Below the pieces are notes generated by a model, which saw only the letters and a program-made list of their open reading frames with translations, was not told where the DNA came from and made no database searches. DNA of 64,000 bases from Caulobacterales bacterium (GTDB lineage: Bacteria > Pseudomonadota > Alphaproteobacteria > Caulobacterales > Caulobacteraceae). The stretch's first letter is position 1. The number at the start of each line of letters is the position of its first letter. The translations under genes were made by a program, and so were the position numbers. Positions 2,244 to 26,528 of this stretch are shown piece after piece. The stretch is from contig JBBRZO010000007.1 of assembly GCA_038236615.1 (NCBI GenBank), positions 25,780 to 89,779 of the forward strand, given 5' to 3'.

Positions 2244-3692
2244 CTACTCCGCCGCCACGAGGGCGGGGCTGACACGGGCCAGCAGGTCGGCATGGATGGC
2301 GGCGGCGGCGTCGCGGCCGTCGCGGATGGCCCAGACCACCAAGCTGGCGCCCCGGACGATGTCGCCGGCGGCGTAGACGTCGGGCAGGCTGGTGCGCTTG
2401 GCGCGGCGGTCGGCCAGCTGCACCGTGCCGGCGCGGCCGACCTTCAGGTGCGGGGCCGCGAACAGGGTCGGCAGGTCTTCCGGTTCGAAACCGAGCGCGG
2501 TGATCACCAGCTTGGCGGGCAGGTCGTAGTCGCTGTCCTCCATCGGCTCGGGGCTGGAGCGGCCCGAGCTGTCCGGCGGGCCCAGCCGCATGCGGTGGGC
2601 GCGCACGGCCTTGGCGGTCCCGGTCTGGTCCAGCACCGCGCGGGGGGCGGCCAGCCAGTCGAACACCACGCCTTCTTCCTCGGCATGGGCGACTTCGCGC
2701 ATCGAGCCCGGCATGTTGGCCTTGTCGCGGCGATAGAGGCAGGTGACCGAGCTGGCGCCCTGGCGGATGGCGGTGCGGACGCAGTCCATGGCGGTGTCGC
2801 CGCCGCCGATGACCACGACATCCTTGCCGTCGGCGTCGAGCACGCCGCTGTCGAAGGCGGCCACTTCATCGCCCAGGCCCTTGCGGTTGGAGGCGATCAG
2901 ATAGTCCAGCCCCTTCACCACGCCCTGCGAGCCGGCGCCGGGCACGGTCAGGTCGCGCGCCTGGTAGACCCCCGTGGCCAGTAGGACGGCGTCATGCCTG
3001 GCGCGCAGGTCGTCGAGCGAAGCGTCGCGGCCGACCTCGAAGTTCATCTTGAAGATGATGCCGCCGTCGGCCAGCCGCTGGGTGCGGCGCTGGACGACGT
3101 CCTTTTCCAGCTTGAAGCCGGGGATGCCGTAGATCAGCAGCCCGCCGGGCCGGTCATGGCGGTCATAGACGGTGACGCTGTAGCCCTGCTCGCGCAACAG
3201 CTCCGCCGCCGACAGCCCCGCCGGGCCGGCCCCGATGATCCCCACCGACTGGCCGCGATCGGCGCCCGGGACCAGCGGCTGGACCCAGCCCTCTTCCCAG
3301 GCCTTGTCGCTCAGATACTTTTCCACTGAGCCGATAGTCACGGTGCCGTGCCCGGACTGCTCGATCACGCAGTTTCCCTCGCACAGGCGGTCCTGCGGAC
3401 AAATCCGGCCACAAATCTCGGGCATGGCGTTGGTGGCCTGGGAGAGCTGGTAGGCCTCTTCCAGCCGGCCGGCAGCGGTCAGCCGCAGCCAGTCGGGGAT
3501 GTTGTTGTGCAGGGGGCAATGGGTCTGGCAGAAGGGGACGCCGCACTGCGAACAGCGCGAGGACTGCTCGGCAGCCTTGGCGTCGATGAAGTCGGCATAG
3601 ATTTCGTGGAAATCGCGGTCGCGCGCCTGCGCGTCCCGCTTTTCAGGGGTGGAGCGCGCGACGGTGGTGAACTTCAGCATGCGCTCGGCCAT
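2244..3692 (-). CDS. gltD: Glutamate synthase small subunit (NADPH)
   Basis: CSQCGVPFCQTHCP Fe-S motif, GAGPAGLSAA and VIGGGDTAMDC dinucleotide motifs, AAGDIVRGASLVVWAIRDGR C-terminus. Confidence 0.97.
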   Translation of the reverse strand: MAERMLKFTTVARSTPEKRDAQARDRDFHEIYADFIDAKAAEQSSRCSQCGVPFCQTHCPLHNNIPDWLRLTAAGRLEEAYQLSQATNAMPEICGRICPQDRLCEGNCVIEQSGHGTVTIGSVEKYLSDKAWEEGWVQPLVPGADRGQSVGIIGAGPAGLSAAELLREQGYSVTVYDRHDRPGGLLIYGIPGFKLEKDVVQRRTQRLADGGIIFKMNFEVGRDASLDDLRARHDAVLLATGVYQARDLTVPGAGSQGVVKGLDYLIASNRKGLGDEVAAFDSGVLDADGKDVVVIGGGDTAMDCVRTAIRQGASSVTCLYRRDKANMPGSMREVAHAEEEGVVFDWLAAPRAVLDQTGTAKAVRAHRMRLGPPDSSGRSSPEPMEDSDYDLPAKLVITALGFEPEDLPTLFAAPHLKVGRAGTVQLADRRAKRTSLPDVYAAGDIVRGASLVVWAIRDGRDAAAAIHADLLARVSPALVAAE

Positions 3693-7439: not shown

Positions 7440-7976
7440 ATGACCACGAAGAGACTCAGCATGACCGGCGGGCGCTCCCGACTGATCCTGGCGGCCCTTG
7501 CGGCGGCGGTTCTGACGCCCAGCTTCGCGCTGGCCCAGCTCGACACCCGCTCACCCATTGACCTCTCGGCGGACTCCTCTGTCGTGGACAACGCCACCTG
7601 CGTGTCGGAATGGCGCGGCAACGTCGAGGCCCTGCAGGGCCGAACCCGCCTGCGCTCCGATTCCATGAAGGTCTATGGCGTGAAGGGCAATTGCGGCCAG
7701 GCCAGCAATCTGGTCGCCGACGGCAACGTCTATTACGTCACCGCCGACCGCAACGTGCGCGCCGATCACGCTGTCTATGAATCGGGCAGCGAGATCATCA
7801 CCCTGACCGGCGGCGTCATCATCGTGCAGGGCAAGAACGTGGTCCGCGCCGACAAGGCGGTGATCAACACCAAGACCGGCGAAACCCAGCTGCAGTCCGC
7901 GGGCCGCAGCGCCGGCGGCCGGGTGCGCGGCGTCTTCTATCCCGCCGACAAGCCGCAAGCCCCCAAGAAGTCCTGA
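7440..7976 (+). CDS. lptA: LPS transport protein LptA (OstA family)
   Basis: Signal peptide, PIDLSAD, WRGNVEALQG, ITLTGGVIIVQGKN, RVRGVF. Confidence 0.88.
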   Translation: MTTKRLSMTGGRSRLILAALAAAVLTPSFALAQLDTRSPIDLSADSSVVDNATCVSEWRGNVEALQGRTRLRSDSMKVYGVKGNCGQASNLVADGNVYYVTADRNVRADHAVYESGSEIITLTGGVIIVQGKNVVRADKAVINTKTGETQLQSAGRSAGGRVRGVFYPADKPQAPKKS

Positions 7977-21716: not shown

Positions 21717-23759
21717 ATGCGTCTCGTTCTCGCCGCCGCCGCCGTCTGCCTGGCCTTCGCGGCCCCGGCCCTGGCCAAGCCGCCGGAAGCCCCCAGCAAA
21801 ATCTTCACCGCCCGCGACCTGTTCGGCCTGGAGGTCGCCTCCGATCCGCGCATCAAGCCGGACGGCTCGGCCATCGCCTATGTCCGATCGACCTACGACA
21901 TCATGGGCGACCGGGCGGTCAACACCATCTGGCTGGCCGACGCCAACGGCGGCGGGCAGGCCCCGATCGCGGCGGGCGGCGGCAGCTACGGCTCGCCGCG
22001 CTGGTCGCCGGACGGCAAGCGCCTGGCCTATGTCGCCGCCATCGATGGCGCCCCGCAGCTCTATGTCCGCTGGATGCAGACCGGCGTGGCCGCGCGGCTC
22101 GCCACCCTGCCTGAGAGCCCCGGCGACATCGCCTGGTCGCCGGACGGCAAGTCCATCGCCTTCACCATGTTCATCCCCGACGAGGGCGTCACCCTGGGCT
22201 CGCCGCTCGCCAAGCCCGATGGGGCCAAATGGGCCGATCCGCTGACCATCATCGGCAAGGTCAACTACCGGGCCGACGGGGCCGGCTATCTGCGCCCCGG
22301 CTTCAACAAGGTCTTCGTCATCGACGCCGACGGCGGGGCCCCGCGCCAGGTCACCTTCGGGGCCTATGACGACACCGGCCCCCTGGCCTGGACCCCCGAC
22401 GGCAAGGCGGTGCTGTTCACCTCCAGCCGCGGTGAGGACTGGGAGCGCGACCCGGTCGAGAGCGAGGTTTTCAAGATCACTGTCGCCGACGGGACGGTCG
22501 CCGCCCTGACCAGCCGTAACGGCCCCGACTTCAACCCGGTCATCTCCCCGGACGGCAAGACGCTGGCCTGGCTGGGCTTCGACGACAAGATGAGGGCCTA
22601 CGAGGACAACATCCTCTACGTCATGCCGCTGTCCGGCGGGACGCCCAAGGCCATCACCACCGGCCTCGATCGCTCGGTCGACGCCGTGCAGTGGTCGGCC
22701 GACAACAGGTCCCTGGTCATCCAGTACACCGACCATGGCGTCACCAAGCTGGCCAAGGTCACGCTGGACGGCGTGGTCACCCCCATCGCCCAGGGCCTGA
22801 CGCCCCGCGCCCTGGACCGGCCCTATGCCGGCGGGGAGTTCACGCTCGCCAATAACGGCATGGTCACCTTCACGATGGGCGATCCCAACCACCCGTCCGA
22901 CCTGGCCGTCGCCGGAAAGGGTGGGACCAAGCGCCTGACCCGCCTCAATGACGAGCTCTTCCAGGGCAAGGCCCTGGGCCAGGTCACCCCGCTGGCGGCA
23001 GCCTCGTCCTTCGACGGCAAGGCGATCGACGCCTGGATGGTCACCCCGCCCAACTTCGATCCCACCAAGAAGTATCCGCTGCTGCTGGAAATCCACGGCG
23101 GCCCCTACGCCGCCTACGGCCCCGTCTGGAGCAGCGAGGACCAGCTCTACGCCGCCGCCGGCTATATCGTGGTGTTCTCCAACCCGCGCGGCTCGACCGG
23201 CCAGGGCGCGGCCTTCGCCGACCTGATCGACAAGGACTATCCCAGCCACGATTACGACGACCTGATGAGCGTGGTCGATGCGGCCATAGCCAAGGGCTCG
23301 GCCGACCCGAACAACCTGTTCGTCACCGGCGGCTCGGGCGGCGGCGTGCTGACCGCCTGGATCGTCGGCAAGACCGGCCGCTTCAAGGCCGCCGTCAGCC
23401 AGAAGCCGGTGATCAACTGGTCCAGCTTCGTGCTGACCTCGGACGGTTATCCGCTGTACGGCCCCTACTGGCTGGGCAAGCAGCCCTGGGAGGATCCAGT
23501 GGGATATTGGGCCCATTCACCCCTGTCGCTGGTCGGCAACGTCACCACCCCGACCATGGTCCTGGTCGGCGAGGAAGACCGCCGCACCCCGCCCTCGGAG
23601 TCCGAACAGCTCTACCAGGCCCTGCAGCTGCGCAAGATCCCGACCCTGCTGGTCCGGGTCCCCGGCGCCTCGCACGGCGGGCTGGCCGAACGGCCCAGCC
23701 AGCTGGCGGCGGAGAACGCGGCCATCGTGGCCTGGTTCGAGCGGTACCGGGTGAAGTAA
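21717..23759 (+). CDS. S9 family dipeptidyl/acylaminoacyl peptidase with TolB-like propeller
   Basis: Signal peptide, repeated WSPDGK, EIHGGP, GGSGGG nucleophile, GEEDRRTP, ASHG. Confidence 0.92.
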   Translation: MRLVLAAAAVCLAFAAPALAKPPEAPSKIFTARDLFGLEVASDPRIKPDGSAIAYVRSTYDIMGDRAVNTIWLADANGGGQAPIAAGGGSYGSPRWSPDGKRLAYVAAIDGAPQLYVRWMQTGVAARLATLPESPGDIAWSPDGKSIAFTMFIPDEGVTLGSPLAKPDGAKWADPLTIIGKVNYRADGAGYLRPGFNKVFVIDADGGAPRQVTFGAYDDTGPLAWTPDGKAVLFTSSRGEDWERDPVESEVFKITVADGTVAALTSRNGPDFNPVISPDGKTLAWLGFDDKMRAYEDNILYVMPLSGGTPKAITTGLDRSVDAVQWSADNRSLVIQYTDHGVTKLAKVTLDGVVTPIAQGLTPRALDRPYAGGEFTLANNGMVTFTMGDPNHPSDLAVAGKGGTKRLTRLNDELFQGKALGQVTPLAAASSFDGKAIDAWMVTPPNFDPTKKYPLLLEIHGGPYAAYGPVWSSEDQLYAAAGYIVVFSNPRGSTGQGAAFADLIDKDYPSHDYDDLMSVVDAAIAKGSADPNNLFVTGGSGGGVLTAWIVGKTGRFKAAVSQKPVINWSSFVLTSDGYPLYGPYWLGKQPWEDPVGYWAHSPLSLVGNVTTPTMVLVGEEDRRTPPSESEQLYQALQLRKIPTLLVRVPGASHGGLAERPSQLAAENAAIVAWFERYRVK

Positions 23760-23825
23760 TAAACCATCCACTTAAGGTTAAGGACGTGTGGCACCCGCTA
23801 CCCCTGCCAAGGCTCAGATCTCAAA

Positions 23826-24629
23826 CTATACGCGTGGGAAAAAATAATCAGTGATGTATGCAGAAATGCCTTCCATATCCGGAAATAGAGTTGTGTAGTC
23901 AATACGCATCAACTCCAGATCCTCCATAGCAACATCTCTTTCTCTTTTGGAAATGACGTGTTTGAATAGTATCGGCATCTGAGGCTGGTGTTGAAACGGC
24001 CCATCTTGATCAAACAATTTTTCCGTATTTCTCCTTGTGGTATCATTTATTGTAAAAGCACCCTGCTGGTATAATTGTCTATAGTTCTTAGGAACATACT
24101 TATCTATAACTTCAAAGTCTTCTTCCCTGAAGACAAATCTCGCATAGCTGGCATCTAACGCCCATATGCAAACATTTCCGGATTTACAGTCGGCCGAGTT
24201 TGCGAAAGCAAAAAATGCCGCAACATAGGGACTGTGCGACCAGTCCAGCAGGCGAGTGGGGACCCCTCTATGTTGAGCAACGGCTTCGATTACGAAGCGT
24301 TTTCGGCGTCCATTGTAGCCCTTGTATAACAGAGCTTCATCCTGGAGGAGGCTGCGGTCCGTTACGAGGCGCTCAAATTCTTCTATCAACTCATTGTACC
24401 GCTGTTGAACGGGAACATTCTCTGGAATGCGCCGATCAAATTTGGGGCTAAGCGAAAATCGCTCACACCCCACACCTCGATATAGAAATGAGGGCCTGCC
24501 GGCACCTGGAGGCCGAACCCCGGCCAGTTGCTGAGCCGCCATTGCCTGTCGCCACTTGGCTGTAAATTCATGCCAACCACTATACTTTATAGTCGCATAG
24601 GGCAGGGGGCTAGTAGACAGGATTTTCAT
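23826..24629 (-). CDS. FRG-domain protein (low-GC island)
   Basis: LYRG, AQHRGVPTRLLDWSHSPYVAAFFA, NYRQLYQQGAF, TLFPDMEG match the FRG family pattern. Confidence 0.88.
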   Translation of the reverse strand: MKILSTSPLPYATIKYSGWHEFTAKWRQAMAAQQLAGVRPPGAGRPSFLYRGVGCERFSLSPKFDRRIPENVPVQQRYNELIEEFERLVTDRSLLQDEALLYKGYNGRRKRFVIEAVAQHRGVPTRLLDWSHSPYVAAFFAFANSADCKSGNVCIWALDASYARFVFREEDFEVIDKYVPKNYRQLYQQGAFTINDTTRRNTEKLFDQDGPFQHQPQMPILFKHVISKRERDVAMEDLELMRIDYTTLFPDMEGISAYITDYFFPRV

Positions 24630-26289
24630 CGTTTACCTTCAGGTCAAAGTAACTAACCAGAGAAGCATGAAATCCATATAGATTAGCGTCGCTCCGAATA
24701 ATCCGAGCGTCGCTCGCCCCTCTCCAATTGTACCTCCAACGTGCTATATTTGCTTGGTCATCGCGAAACGCCAAAAGGCCGTGTCGCCACATTATATTGT
24801 CAAACCTGTATACATCGTCGCCCAGGCCACCAAAAATTGGCCCGGCTCTATCTGTGGAAATCAGACCCGCGGCAGACATAGCTTGAATTAATTCACTGTG
24901 CGTAAACTGCTCCTTACGATCGAGGAACATAACCATCGACTTAAGTTGATCTTTGACGACGTTTCTCATATTGCCAATGAGCGCCCGAGCCGATTTGGGG
25001 TCATCAGCGTCTGACATTGGAAGCTCTTGCTTGGAATCTTGCAGTATTGACGCCATGTAATCGGCGCTCATCAGAGCCTCATTTATACATATGAGGAGCG
25101 ATTCTTCTCCAAACCTGAGCGAAGCGCTGTTGACGGCCTTTCGTAGCGAAGGTTCGCCAAACACTTTCCCCTGGAGCCGCCGCCTAGCCGATTCCAAGAA
25201 TATTTCATTTCCCATGACGACAATATCGCGAGGTATCATTCTCGAGTGTCGGAGTATGTAATCAGACACGGGCTCGACAATAGACCTCTTCACATTTTGA
25301 ACATTAGTAAATCCCAACCAAGCCCCGAATGGGTCCTCATTAACATCTATTTCTGGGCGAGCCAAATATCGACTCTCTAGTCGTCTTATTTTCTCTATTA
25401 GAAATCTACGAACGGTAACTTGATCCCATATCAAGTGTCTAATGTGAGAGTTTGAAATATTTCTGGACGAGTGTTCCGTTCTCATTACGGAGTCAAATAC
25501 TATATCTCTAAGAGCGATAACCACATGTATCTTCGCAAATAGCTCCCTTTCGGAGAAGGTTTGAAATACGGCATAGAATAATCCAAGTTGACATATCGCC
25601 CATAGCGCCGGCGCGTCATCAAACTCTTCATCGATACTATCAATGTAGAACGAAACTTCTCGTGATTTCCTGACAAGGTCAGCCACATAACTCTTGAGTT
25701 CGGGCCACTTTGGGTGTTCCAAATAGTTGGACCAGCCCGTGGCGCCGCGAACTGACCTGACAATTCTGGACAGAAAGGATGTCGGAGTTAACGGTGCCAG
25801 AGGGATGTCGACAAGCTCTCCGAAATAGGCCTTGAATTCGTCCGCCTCTAACATCTCCTCCGAACTTTTTATCGCCGGCCTCTTGCTGTGGAATAAGCTA
25901 CAGACGGCCAGTAGGATGGCTCGCTCCCACAACATCGTCCAGAATCGTAAATTGACGGGCTCGCCGGTCGCGGAAACGGCGGCTCCTAATCTCCGCAATC
26001 TATCCAGATAGGGTTCGGCGCTGTGCACGATTTCGATTAGAGTGCTGGTTCGGAAAGCCTCTTTGTCGTCGAGAACTACGAAATCTCTCTTTGAGGCCGC
26101 AAGTTGGTGGGCCCTTAGATAGAGCGTCTTTCCAGAACCTTTCCTGCCAACGATGATTCTTTCCCTCATCGAGAGCGGATTGTTGATTGGAGATTCGTAT
26201 ACTCCGTCGATCTCGATCAACCCATCCTTCGGGTCAGATCGGGCGGCATCCGAGTCGCCAAAAGGCATTTCCGATGTGACATGAGTCAT
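24610..26289 (-). CDS. P-loop ATPase, Sll1717/FunZ-like (low-GC island)
   Basis: PFGDSDA N-terminus, Walker A IIVGRKGSGKT, Walker B FYIDSIDE, VIALRDIVF, HSRMIPRDIV; family call by pattern recognition. Confidence 0.78.
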   Translation of the reverse strand: MTHVTSEMPFGDSDAARSDPKDGLIEIDGVYESPINNPLSMRERIIVGRKGSGKTLYLRAHQLAASKRDFVVLDDKEAFRTSTLIEIVHSAEPYLDRLRRLGAAVSATGEPVNLRFWTMLWERAILLAVCSLFHSKRPAIKSSEEMLEADEFKAYFGELVDIPLAPLTPTSFLSRIVRSVRGATGWSNYLEHPKWPELKSYVADLVRKSREVSFYIDSIDEEFDDAPALWAICQLGLFYAVFQTFSERELFAKIHVVIALRDIVFDSVMRTEHSSRNISNSHIRHLIWDQVTVRRFLIEKIRRLESRYLARPEIDVNEDPFGAWLGFTNVQNVKRSIVEPVSDYILRHSRMIPRDIVVMGNEIFLESARRRLQGKVFGEPSLRKAVNSASLRFGEESLLICINEALMSADYMASILQDSKQELPMSDADDPKSARALIGNMRNVVKDQLKSMVMFLDRKEQFTHSELIQAMSAAGLISTDRAGPIFGGLGDDVYRFDNIMWRHGLLAFRDDQANIARWRYNWRGASDARIIRSDANLYGFHASLVSYFDLKVNDENPVY

Positions 26290-26528
26290 GTCTTCAACCA
26301 AAACGGCGCCTCCCCCAATCGCTCGAAGTATGCGCGAATTTTTGTGGAGAACAAGGTTCTCAAGTTTGCGTTTTTCGGGGGCGCGCCCTGAGCTAAGGGG
26401 ACAGCCTGTCTAAACATCGCCGAGGCGCTATTGATTGCCGCCGCAATCCACTGTTGGGGGCGTTGGGTCGTTTCTGCTATAGCCCGCCACCAAGGGCGGC
26501 CCGGTGGCCGCCCGCTTGCGTTTGGATC

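Follow-up and report, generated by a model that had tools for sequence, protein, structure and literature searches.

A sensor ATPase that works with a separate enzymatic effector is a familiar architecture, as in RADAR, PARIS and Septu. Here we describe a two-gene locus in a 64,000-nucleotide stretch of a Caulobacterales genome (contig JBBRZO010000007.1, positions 25,780 to 89,779; the whole stretch is referred to below as the window). The locus encodes a P-loop ATPase of the Sll1717 family followed by a protein with an FRG domain, and we regard it as a credible, unnamed ATPase-plus-effector variant of two parts that are each already catalogued. The Sll1717 family includes one validated anti-phage member, DS-41 (‘AAA2’, WP_033812887.1), a single protein of 502 residues that was validated in Escherichia coli in the DefensePredictor study, which gives no mechanism (PMC13092281). 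FRG proteins have been flagged as defence candidates by two independent computational screens. PADLOC lists them as the candidate PDC-S15, which one preprint ranks with the strongest predictors of phage infectivity in Pseudomonas aeruginosa. The supplementary tables of the DefensePredictor study class FRG proteins as ‘predicted novel defense gene’, and its main text does not mention them (PMC13092281). The Aravind group has assigned Frg to the ADP-ribosyltransferase (ART) superfamily and considers it a possible effector with NADase activity (PMC9503650), and no biochemical activity is reported for FRG proteins in the literature that could be searched.

On balance, the evidence tilts towards the pair being a coupled conflict or defence module that was acquired horizontally, acts most likely against phages and has the FRG protein as its effector. 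The Sll1717-FRG pair is absent as a pair from PADLOC v2 and from NCBIfam release 20, and we found no paper that describes it. An initial annotation of the locus, made from the sequence alone, had called it a candidate novel defence system and recognised it as no named one. As a combination it matches no entry in these two catalogues, but each gene alone falls in a catalogued defence-type family (gene 2 in the single-gene candidate PDC-S15), so the novelty is smaller than that phrase implies.

A co-inherited ATPase-FRG pair

Both genes fall in curated families. Gene 1 belongs to the Sll1717 family, scoring 100.4 bits (E 1.3e-28) against the NCBIfam model NF047389 (‘P-loop ATPase, Sll1717 family’), whose cut-off is 75. 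The alignment places residues 10-393 on model positions 1-353 of 454 and leaves the last 100 model positions unmatched. No Pfam family matches gene 1 at its cut-off, and PADLOC v2 holds no model for it. Gene 2 carries the FRG domain of Pfam PF08867 at residues 48-147 (E 2.2e-17, 64.2 bits, gathering threshold 25). It also matches the PADLOC PDC-S15 model PDLC04937 (residues 12-259 on model positions 13-244 of 254, E 6.6e-47, 158 bits) and 13 further PDC-S15 models, 14 in all, as judged by hidden Markov model (HMM) E-value and score rather than by PADLOC’s own thresholds. The profile searches thus confirm the Sll1717-like and FRG assignments of the initial annotation. The additional name FunZ is borne by no NCBIfam, Pfam or PADLOC match, and a literature search for Sll1717 and FunZ returned no relevant paper. 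Both open reading frames (ORFs) are real genes, with homologues at E-values down to 1e-188 and confident AlphaFold2 models.

Homologues of gene 1 comprise 442 cluster representatives at E<=1e-3. In all nine metagenomic relatives whose context is readable, the ATPase gene is followed directly by an FRG gene. Every metagenomic ATPase homologue with a readable contig (L001-L007) has this order, with both genes on one strand, at ATPase identities from 52% to 24%. We also scanned one genome per prokaryotic species with a profile built from eight of the closer ATPase sequences, which yielded 45 loci, 36 of them with a strong ATPase match. FRG is immediately downstream in 21 of these 36, and the linked loci span Alpha- and Gammaproteobacteria, Bacteroidota, Actinomycetota and Chloroflexota. 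Searching in reverse from the FRG protein, three of four close homologues checked on long contigs proved to be preceded by the ATPase (L078-L080), and of 29 closely related loci examined across the window FRG subclade, 28 show the same arrangement. The junction between the two genes measures -17 to +61 nt in nine relatives with independent gene calls and -20 in the window, where the overlapping coordinates suggest translational coupling. Gene order and coupling are conserved across these loci. In the fourth homologue of the reverse search (L081, 4197-5849), an FRG gene of the linked clade is preceded instead by an uncharacterised 264-residue gene, which may be a partner replacement.

The two proteins also share a history. 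In an FRG tree that includes 19 unlinked FRG proteins, the ATPase-linked state requires 2 changes, against a mean of 15.2 for shuffled labels, and none of 500 shuffles gave a number as low. Pairwise distances among ATPases correlate with those among their FRG partners (Mantel r = 0.79, as high in 0 of 5000 permutations; Spearman 0.34). Inside its own clades, the ATPase-FRG pair is a real, co-inherited unit. It is rare when the two families are taken whole: 40 of 401 sampled Pseudomonadota genomes (~10%) encode PF08867, and in 39 of them a further 45 FRG copies were seen, none beside this ATPase. The initial annotation had treated the two genes as a pair, a view that stands for their own clades (21 of 36 strong loci) but does not extend to the families as a whole. 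Some copies are decaying, with the ATPase, the FRG gene or both split by frameshifts (L019, L049 and L050).

An ATPase tree rooted on DS-41 homologues shows where the FRG partner was kept and where it was lost. Nearly all of its basal and middle branches carry the FRG link, as do all eight members of the well-supported clade to which the window ATPase belongs. With the exception of the solo copy in L028, the ATPases that lack FRG all fall in one derived, mostly actinobacterial subclade, where FRG has been replaced. They include a solo gene between housekeeping genes (L021), tandem paralogues (L020, L023, L024 and L036) and proteins with an additional AAA domain or a Ser/Thr kinase fused to the N terminus (L025, L026, L034, L040 and L008). 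Because the FRG-less forms lie mostly in this single derived branch, partner swapping within the ATPase clade is suggested, a pattern typical of conflict systems.

The C-terminal part of the ATPase follows the same division. FRG is present in 21 of the 28 strong loci whose ATPase retains similarity beyond about residue 450, compared with none of the 7 loci without it (Fisher p = 5e-4). The C-terminal region may therefore be the part of the ATPase that works with FRG.

Three side observations concern the reach of the ATPase. Solirubrobacterales and related Actinomycetota carry the tandem or AAA- or kinase-fused forms of the clade, mostly without FRG. The solo ATPase of L028 (3549-4946), from a Halarcobacter metagenome-assembled genome (MAG), is directly preceded by a gene for a KAP-family P-loop NTPase (PF07693, 1.2e-39). 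A fragmentary homologue in a Methanophagales archaeon MAG (L047; 40% identity over residues 9-369, two ORFs on a short contig) suggests that the ATPase family reaches archaea.

DS-41 entered the analysis through a weak local match of gene 1 to NCBIfam NF053860 (‘DS41_1_antiphage’). Two DS-41 homologues retrieved from genomes score 442 and 396 bits against NF053860 and 120 and 113 bits against NF047389, above both cut-offs. Since the window ATPase passes NF047389 as well, these proteins are members of one curated family. Three Sll1717-family proteins (L105-L107) match the profile of the window ATPase clade, and all three match the DS-41 model in some search. We rejected the possibility that the window ATPase is itself a DS-41 orthologue, as its match to NF053860 reaches 16.1 bits against a cut-off of 370 and is local to residues 343-394. 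A profile of the window ATPase aligned to DS-41 homologues with hhalign gave a probability of 14.8%, which likewise argues against DS-41 membership.

Protein features and genomic setting

The features of the locus are collected in Table 1. The ORF list bears out the two-gene minus-strand operon of the initial annotation, with its 20-nt overlap and its products of 559 and 267 residues; the ORF of gene 1 extends to 26301 and would give 563 residues from a TTG codon, compared with 559 from the ATG at 26289. The sequence motifs that the initial annotation had quoted (GRKGSGKT, YIDSIDE, RMIPRD, YRG, QHRGVPTRLLDW, QQGAF and LFPD) were all found at the expected residues, LFPD at residues 248-251 of gene 2.

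Table 1. Features of the ATPase-FRG locus, in window coordinates.
Feature	Coordinates	Strand	Basis
Gene 1, Sll1717-family STAND/ORC-like P-loop ATPase, 559 aa	24610..26289	-	ORF + NF047389
Walker A GRKGSGKT, gene 1 residues 48-55	26125..26148	-	motif search
Extended Walker B SFYIDSIDE, gene 1 residues 213-221 (YIDSIDE 215-221)	25627..25653	-	motif search
RMIPRD, gene 1 residues 350-355, helical lid	25225..25242	-	motif search
ATPase C-terminal region, ~residues 411-559, predicted helical bundle then small beta-rich domain	24610..25059	-	secondary structure of AlphaFold2 model
Gene 2, FRG-domain protein, 267 aa, proposed effector	23826..24629	-	ORF + PF08867 + PDC-S15
YRG (‘FRG’ motif), gene 2 residues 50-52, predicted beta-strand	24474..24482	-	motif search; R51, G52 invariant
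QHRGVPTRLLDW core motif, gene 2 residues 119-130	24240..24275	-	motif search
QQGAF, gene 2 residues 188-192, just before predicted strand	24054..24068	-	motif search; Q188 invariant
Overlap of ATPase end and FRG start, 20 nt	24610..24629	-	ORF coordinates
Low-GC islet, ~48% GC, ~2.6 kb	23760..26450	.	GC scan; between S9 peptidase stop (23759) and mtaB upstream region
Divergent intergenic region, ATPase start to mtaB ATG (26529), presumed operon promoter	26290..26528	.	sequence

Several residues of the ATPase are strictly conserved. In alignments of 35 and 37 sequences, G48, G51, G53 and K54 of Walker A, D217 and D220 of Walker B, and R347, H348, P353 and R354 in and around RMIPRD are invariant. 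The Walker B sequence D-S-I-D-E has the form D-[GAS]-h-D-E, which is typical of NACHT/STAND NTPases, and RMIPRD is a candidate sensor-2 or arginine-finger region.

The AlphaFold2 model of the ATPase (mean predicted local distance difference test score, pLDDT, 86.7) places an N-terminal P-loop alpha/beta core ahead of a helical lid that bears R347-H348 and P353-R354, followed by an extended bundle of helices and, at the C terminus, a small beta-rich domain. In a Foldseek search of the PDB, the top-ranking fold was RdrA of RADAR (8hr7_A, E 3.3e-4, probability 1.0), at template modelling (TM) scores of 0.30/0.21. Proteasomal AAA+ subunits, BrxC of BREX, ORC and DnaA follow, all at low TM-scores. 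A profile search of PDB sequences returned P-loop noise alone. When gene 1 was checked against STAND models, the best Pfam match was ORC-CDC6-like at 13 bits, and none of NACHT, NB-ARC and AAA_16 reached threshold.

In the FRG family, an alignment of 74 sequences leaves R51, R66, H120, T125, D129 and Q188 as the invariant polar residues. Within the core motif, L128 and W130 are invariant alongside H120, T125 and D129. The initial annotation had drawn attention to an Arg after the QH of this motif, where a Tyr was thought usual; the residue carries no weight, as the position varies freely among partner FRG proteins (R, W, H, N or Y). The AlphaFold2 model of the FRG protein has a mean pLDDT of 93.7, and 13 of its 14 best Foldseek matches in the PDB are ADP-ribosyltransferases. 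A Foldseek search of the viral structures in BFVD gave no significant match.

The two genes fill a low-GC islet of foreign, horizontally acquired accessory DNA. The content of guanine plus cytosine (GC) is 48.4% over 23760-26400, compared with 68.7% and 69.2% in the flanks and 67.1% in the whole window, an abrupt drop that the initial annotation had already noticed. A scan of the islet and its borders found no integrase, tRNA, or flanking direct or inverted repeats. Upstream of the operon, a sigma-70 consensus scan of the divergent intergenic region revealed no minus-strand promoter, and a consensus scan for an operon terminator was also negative. A perfect 8-bp all-GC hairpin (GGGCGGCC cggt GGCCGCCC, 26494-26513, plus strand) stands where this region has native GC, 16 nt before the ATG of mtaB.

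The islet lies between dapF and mtaB, as does an S9 peptidase gene of native GC (21717-23759, plus strand). These two anchors are ~0.9 kb apart in five genomes of the same genus versus 4.9 kb here, and a sixth genome has a rearranged neighbourhood. The five genomes with the short spacing also lack the S9 peptidase gene, so the low-GC islet is not the only variable part of the dapF-mtaB interval. Similarity to one same-genus genome picks up again at 26475; because identity at mtaB within the genus is just 81-84%, a precise empty site is not definable.

Two others among 37 same-genus genomes (G000 included) carry a gene that passes the Sll1717 cut-off. The first (L010) matches the profile of the window ATPase clade weakly (51 bits) and has no FRG nearby. 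In the second (G011, L009/L018), the Sll1717-family gene is broken by an in-frame TGA stop and does not match the clade profile.

We surveyed 134 neighbouring ORFs from 25 linked loci, a descriptive count made on crude longest-ORF calls without a background set. Some of these loci adjoin DNA methyltransferases (few), a PD-Lambda-5_A gene (one), capP (one), several transposases, helix-turn-helix proteins or an integrase. On the metagenomic contig L002, a HicB-like antitoxin gene is found on each side of the pair (2795-3025 and 7676-7888), and an amidase gene lies between the upstream one and the pair.

Proposed function and its rivals

From these observations we infer a defence role for the pair, in which the ATPase controls the FRG protein and the FRG protein acts chemically on the cell; the initial annotation had likewise proposed an infection-sensing ATPase in control of an FRG effector. 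Kinase or AAA modules take the place of FRG in the derived branch, which marks FRG as occupying the effector position. The ATPase would serve as a nucleotide-dependent sensor or switch, and FRG, probably bound by the C-terminal region of the ATPase, would be the effector. In an uninfected cell, the ATPase would hold FRG inactive. A phage cue would then alter the nucleotide or oligomeric state of the ATPase, and FRG would become active. With R51, H120, D129 and Q188 forming an atypical, ADP-ribosyltransferase-like active site, the activated protein might attack nicotinamide adenine dinucleotide (NAD+) or a target that depends on NAD. Growth of the cell would halt before the phage completes its cycle, an outcome known as abortive infection.

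That the FRG chemistry involves NAD is possible, and we hold it with less confidence than the module itself. In the model, QQGAF appears to stand in place of the [QE]xE motif of ADP-ribosyltransferases, as Q188-x-G190. The matches to these enzymes are weak, and together with the missing invariant Glu this leaves NAD chemistry unproven for FRG and atypical if real.

Several observations weigh against a defence module of this kind, some of them bearing on the chemistry, others on the pairing and its setting. The best Foldseek E-value among the ADP-ribosyltransferase matches of the FRG model is 0.02, with query-normalised TM-scores of 0.20-0.29, and a profile search of PDB sequences with the FRG protein found nothing. 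The FRG family has no invariant Glu in the 74-sequence alignment and accordingly lacks a complete canonical triad, whether R-S-E or H-Y-E. Intact solo ATPases occur in the same clade (L021, L028, L032, L039 and L042), and FRG is therefore not always needed. The window ATPase falls short of DS-41 membership, which limits its tie to the validated system to the family level. Most neighbours of the pair in the 25 linked loci are housekeeping genes, and the ATPase has no tblastn match in 72,556 plasmids or 50,697 phage genomes. Finally, no experiment that supports this pair, or FRG proteins of any kind, was found in the literature that could be searched.

The alternative that survives best is a toxin-antitoxin-like or addiction unit, or another selfish or regulatory unit, in which the ATPase restrains an FRG toxin and the two stabilise the islet, or in which the pair regulates an NAD- or ADP-ribose-linked process. 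Here and in several relatives, the pair forms a tiny two-gene islet amid housekeeping genes with no other defence genes near, as might be expected of such a unit; the HicB-like genes that flank the pair in L002 and the decay of several copies point the same way. A STAND-like ATPase of 559 residues would, however, be an atypical antitoxin, and the only tested member of its family is anti-phage. The order of sensor then effector, and the exchange of partners for kinase or AAA modules, are moreover typical of immune-type systems. We consider this alternative unlikely, and it overlaps with the defence module that we favour, because many toxin-antitoxin modules are abortive-infection systems.

Less probable again is that two independent single-gene defence factors happen to lie side by side, the ATPase acting alone like DS-41 and the FRG protein alone like PDC-S15, with no coupling between them. 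DS-41 protects E. coli as one gene (PMC13092281). PDC-S15 is likewise a one-gene entry in PADLOC, and in the Pseudomonadota sample the other 45 FRG copies all stand apart from the ATPase. The solo ATPases of the clade, and the linked-clade FRG gene without an ATPase in L081, are also consistent with independence. These points are set against a fixed order and strand with overlapping or very short junctions in ~30 loci across phyla, and chance adjacency would not outlast transfer across so many phyla. The linked FRG proteins moreover form nearly a single clade, the two proteins co-vary, and FRG tracks the C-terminal domain of the ATPase.

Very unlikely, finally, is that FRG is a signal synthase producing an ADP-ribose-derived messenger with the ATPase as regulator or responder, as in Thoeris: Frg does figure among the possible signal-generating domains of the ART superfamily (PMC9503650), but the conserved unit consists of two genes, no further gene for a receptor or effector is kept beside them, and a Pfam scan of the ATPase found no recognisable nucleotide-sensor domain (SLOG, Macro or STING).

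Returning to the coupled defence module, a more specific version of it would make Sll1717-FRG a new two-component abortive-infection family in which a STAND-like ATPase directly gates an FRG enzyme with non-classical ADP-ribosyl chemistry (R, H, D and Q, and no catalytic Glu). This version seems doubtful in its entirety; if true, it would provide the first tractable, switchable system for the function of FRG domains. The coupled clade in any case offers a natural handle on both the FRG proteins and the Sll1717 ATPases, the ATPase presumably controlling FRG. Should the pair prove protective against phages, the catalogues would gain a named two-gene system, and a set of small low-GC islets that are now partly annotated would be explained.

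Comparison with described systems

DS-41 resembles the window ATPase in size (~500-560 residues), in its N-terminal P-loop core and in an N-terminal ‘PF..’ motif ahead of Walker A. The two differ in that DS-41 acts alone, whereas coupling to a separate FRG gene is ancestral in the window ATPase clade and is seen in ~30 related loci. Their C-terminal regions are unrelated, and DS-41 homologues end in a Cys-rich motif. The likeness of gene 2 to PDC-S15 extends, for the model PDLC04937, over nearly the full length. PDC-S15 is nonetheless defined as an unvalidated single-gene candidate, whereas the window FRG subclade is almost always preceded by an ATPase.

RADAR offers a parallel in organisation. 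It too consists of two genes, one for a large AAA+/STAND-like ATPase (RdrA) and one for a separate enzyme expected to act on a nucleotide-type metabolite. The partner at our locus is FRG rather than the RdrB adenosine deaminase, and neither PADLOC nor Pfam gave a sequence match to RdrA, nor PADLOC one to RdrB. We rejected RADAR membership because the RdrA match is one of remote fold alone (E 3.3e-4, TM 0.30) and the partner is an FRG protein.

With the STAND NTPases of defence (Avs/AVAST and bacterial NLR-like proteins) and sequestering ATPase-effector pairs such as PARIS (AriA/AriB), the window ATPase shares a NACHT-type Walker B (DSIDE) and a helical C-terminal region. Its relatives also exchange their effector module, which may be FRG, a Ser/Thr kinase or an extra AAA domain. 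It differs from STAND proteins in that its putative effector is encoded by a gene of its own instead of being fused to it, and in lacking sensor domains of the repeat type.

FRG in turn recalls the ART superfamily, which includes the R-S-E toxins and the RES-domain NADase toxins, in that the first strand of its core bears an invariant Arg and the ‘LLDW’ strand is followed by a turn rich in S/T. It departs from that superfamily in carrying Q-x-G at the position of the catalytic Glu and in giving no significant fold match.

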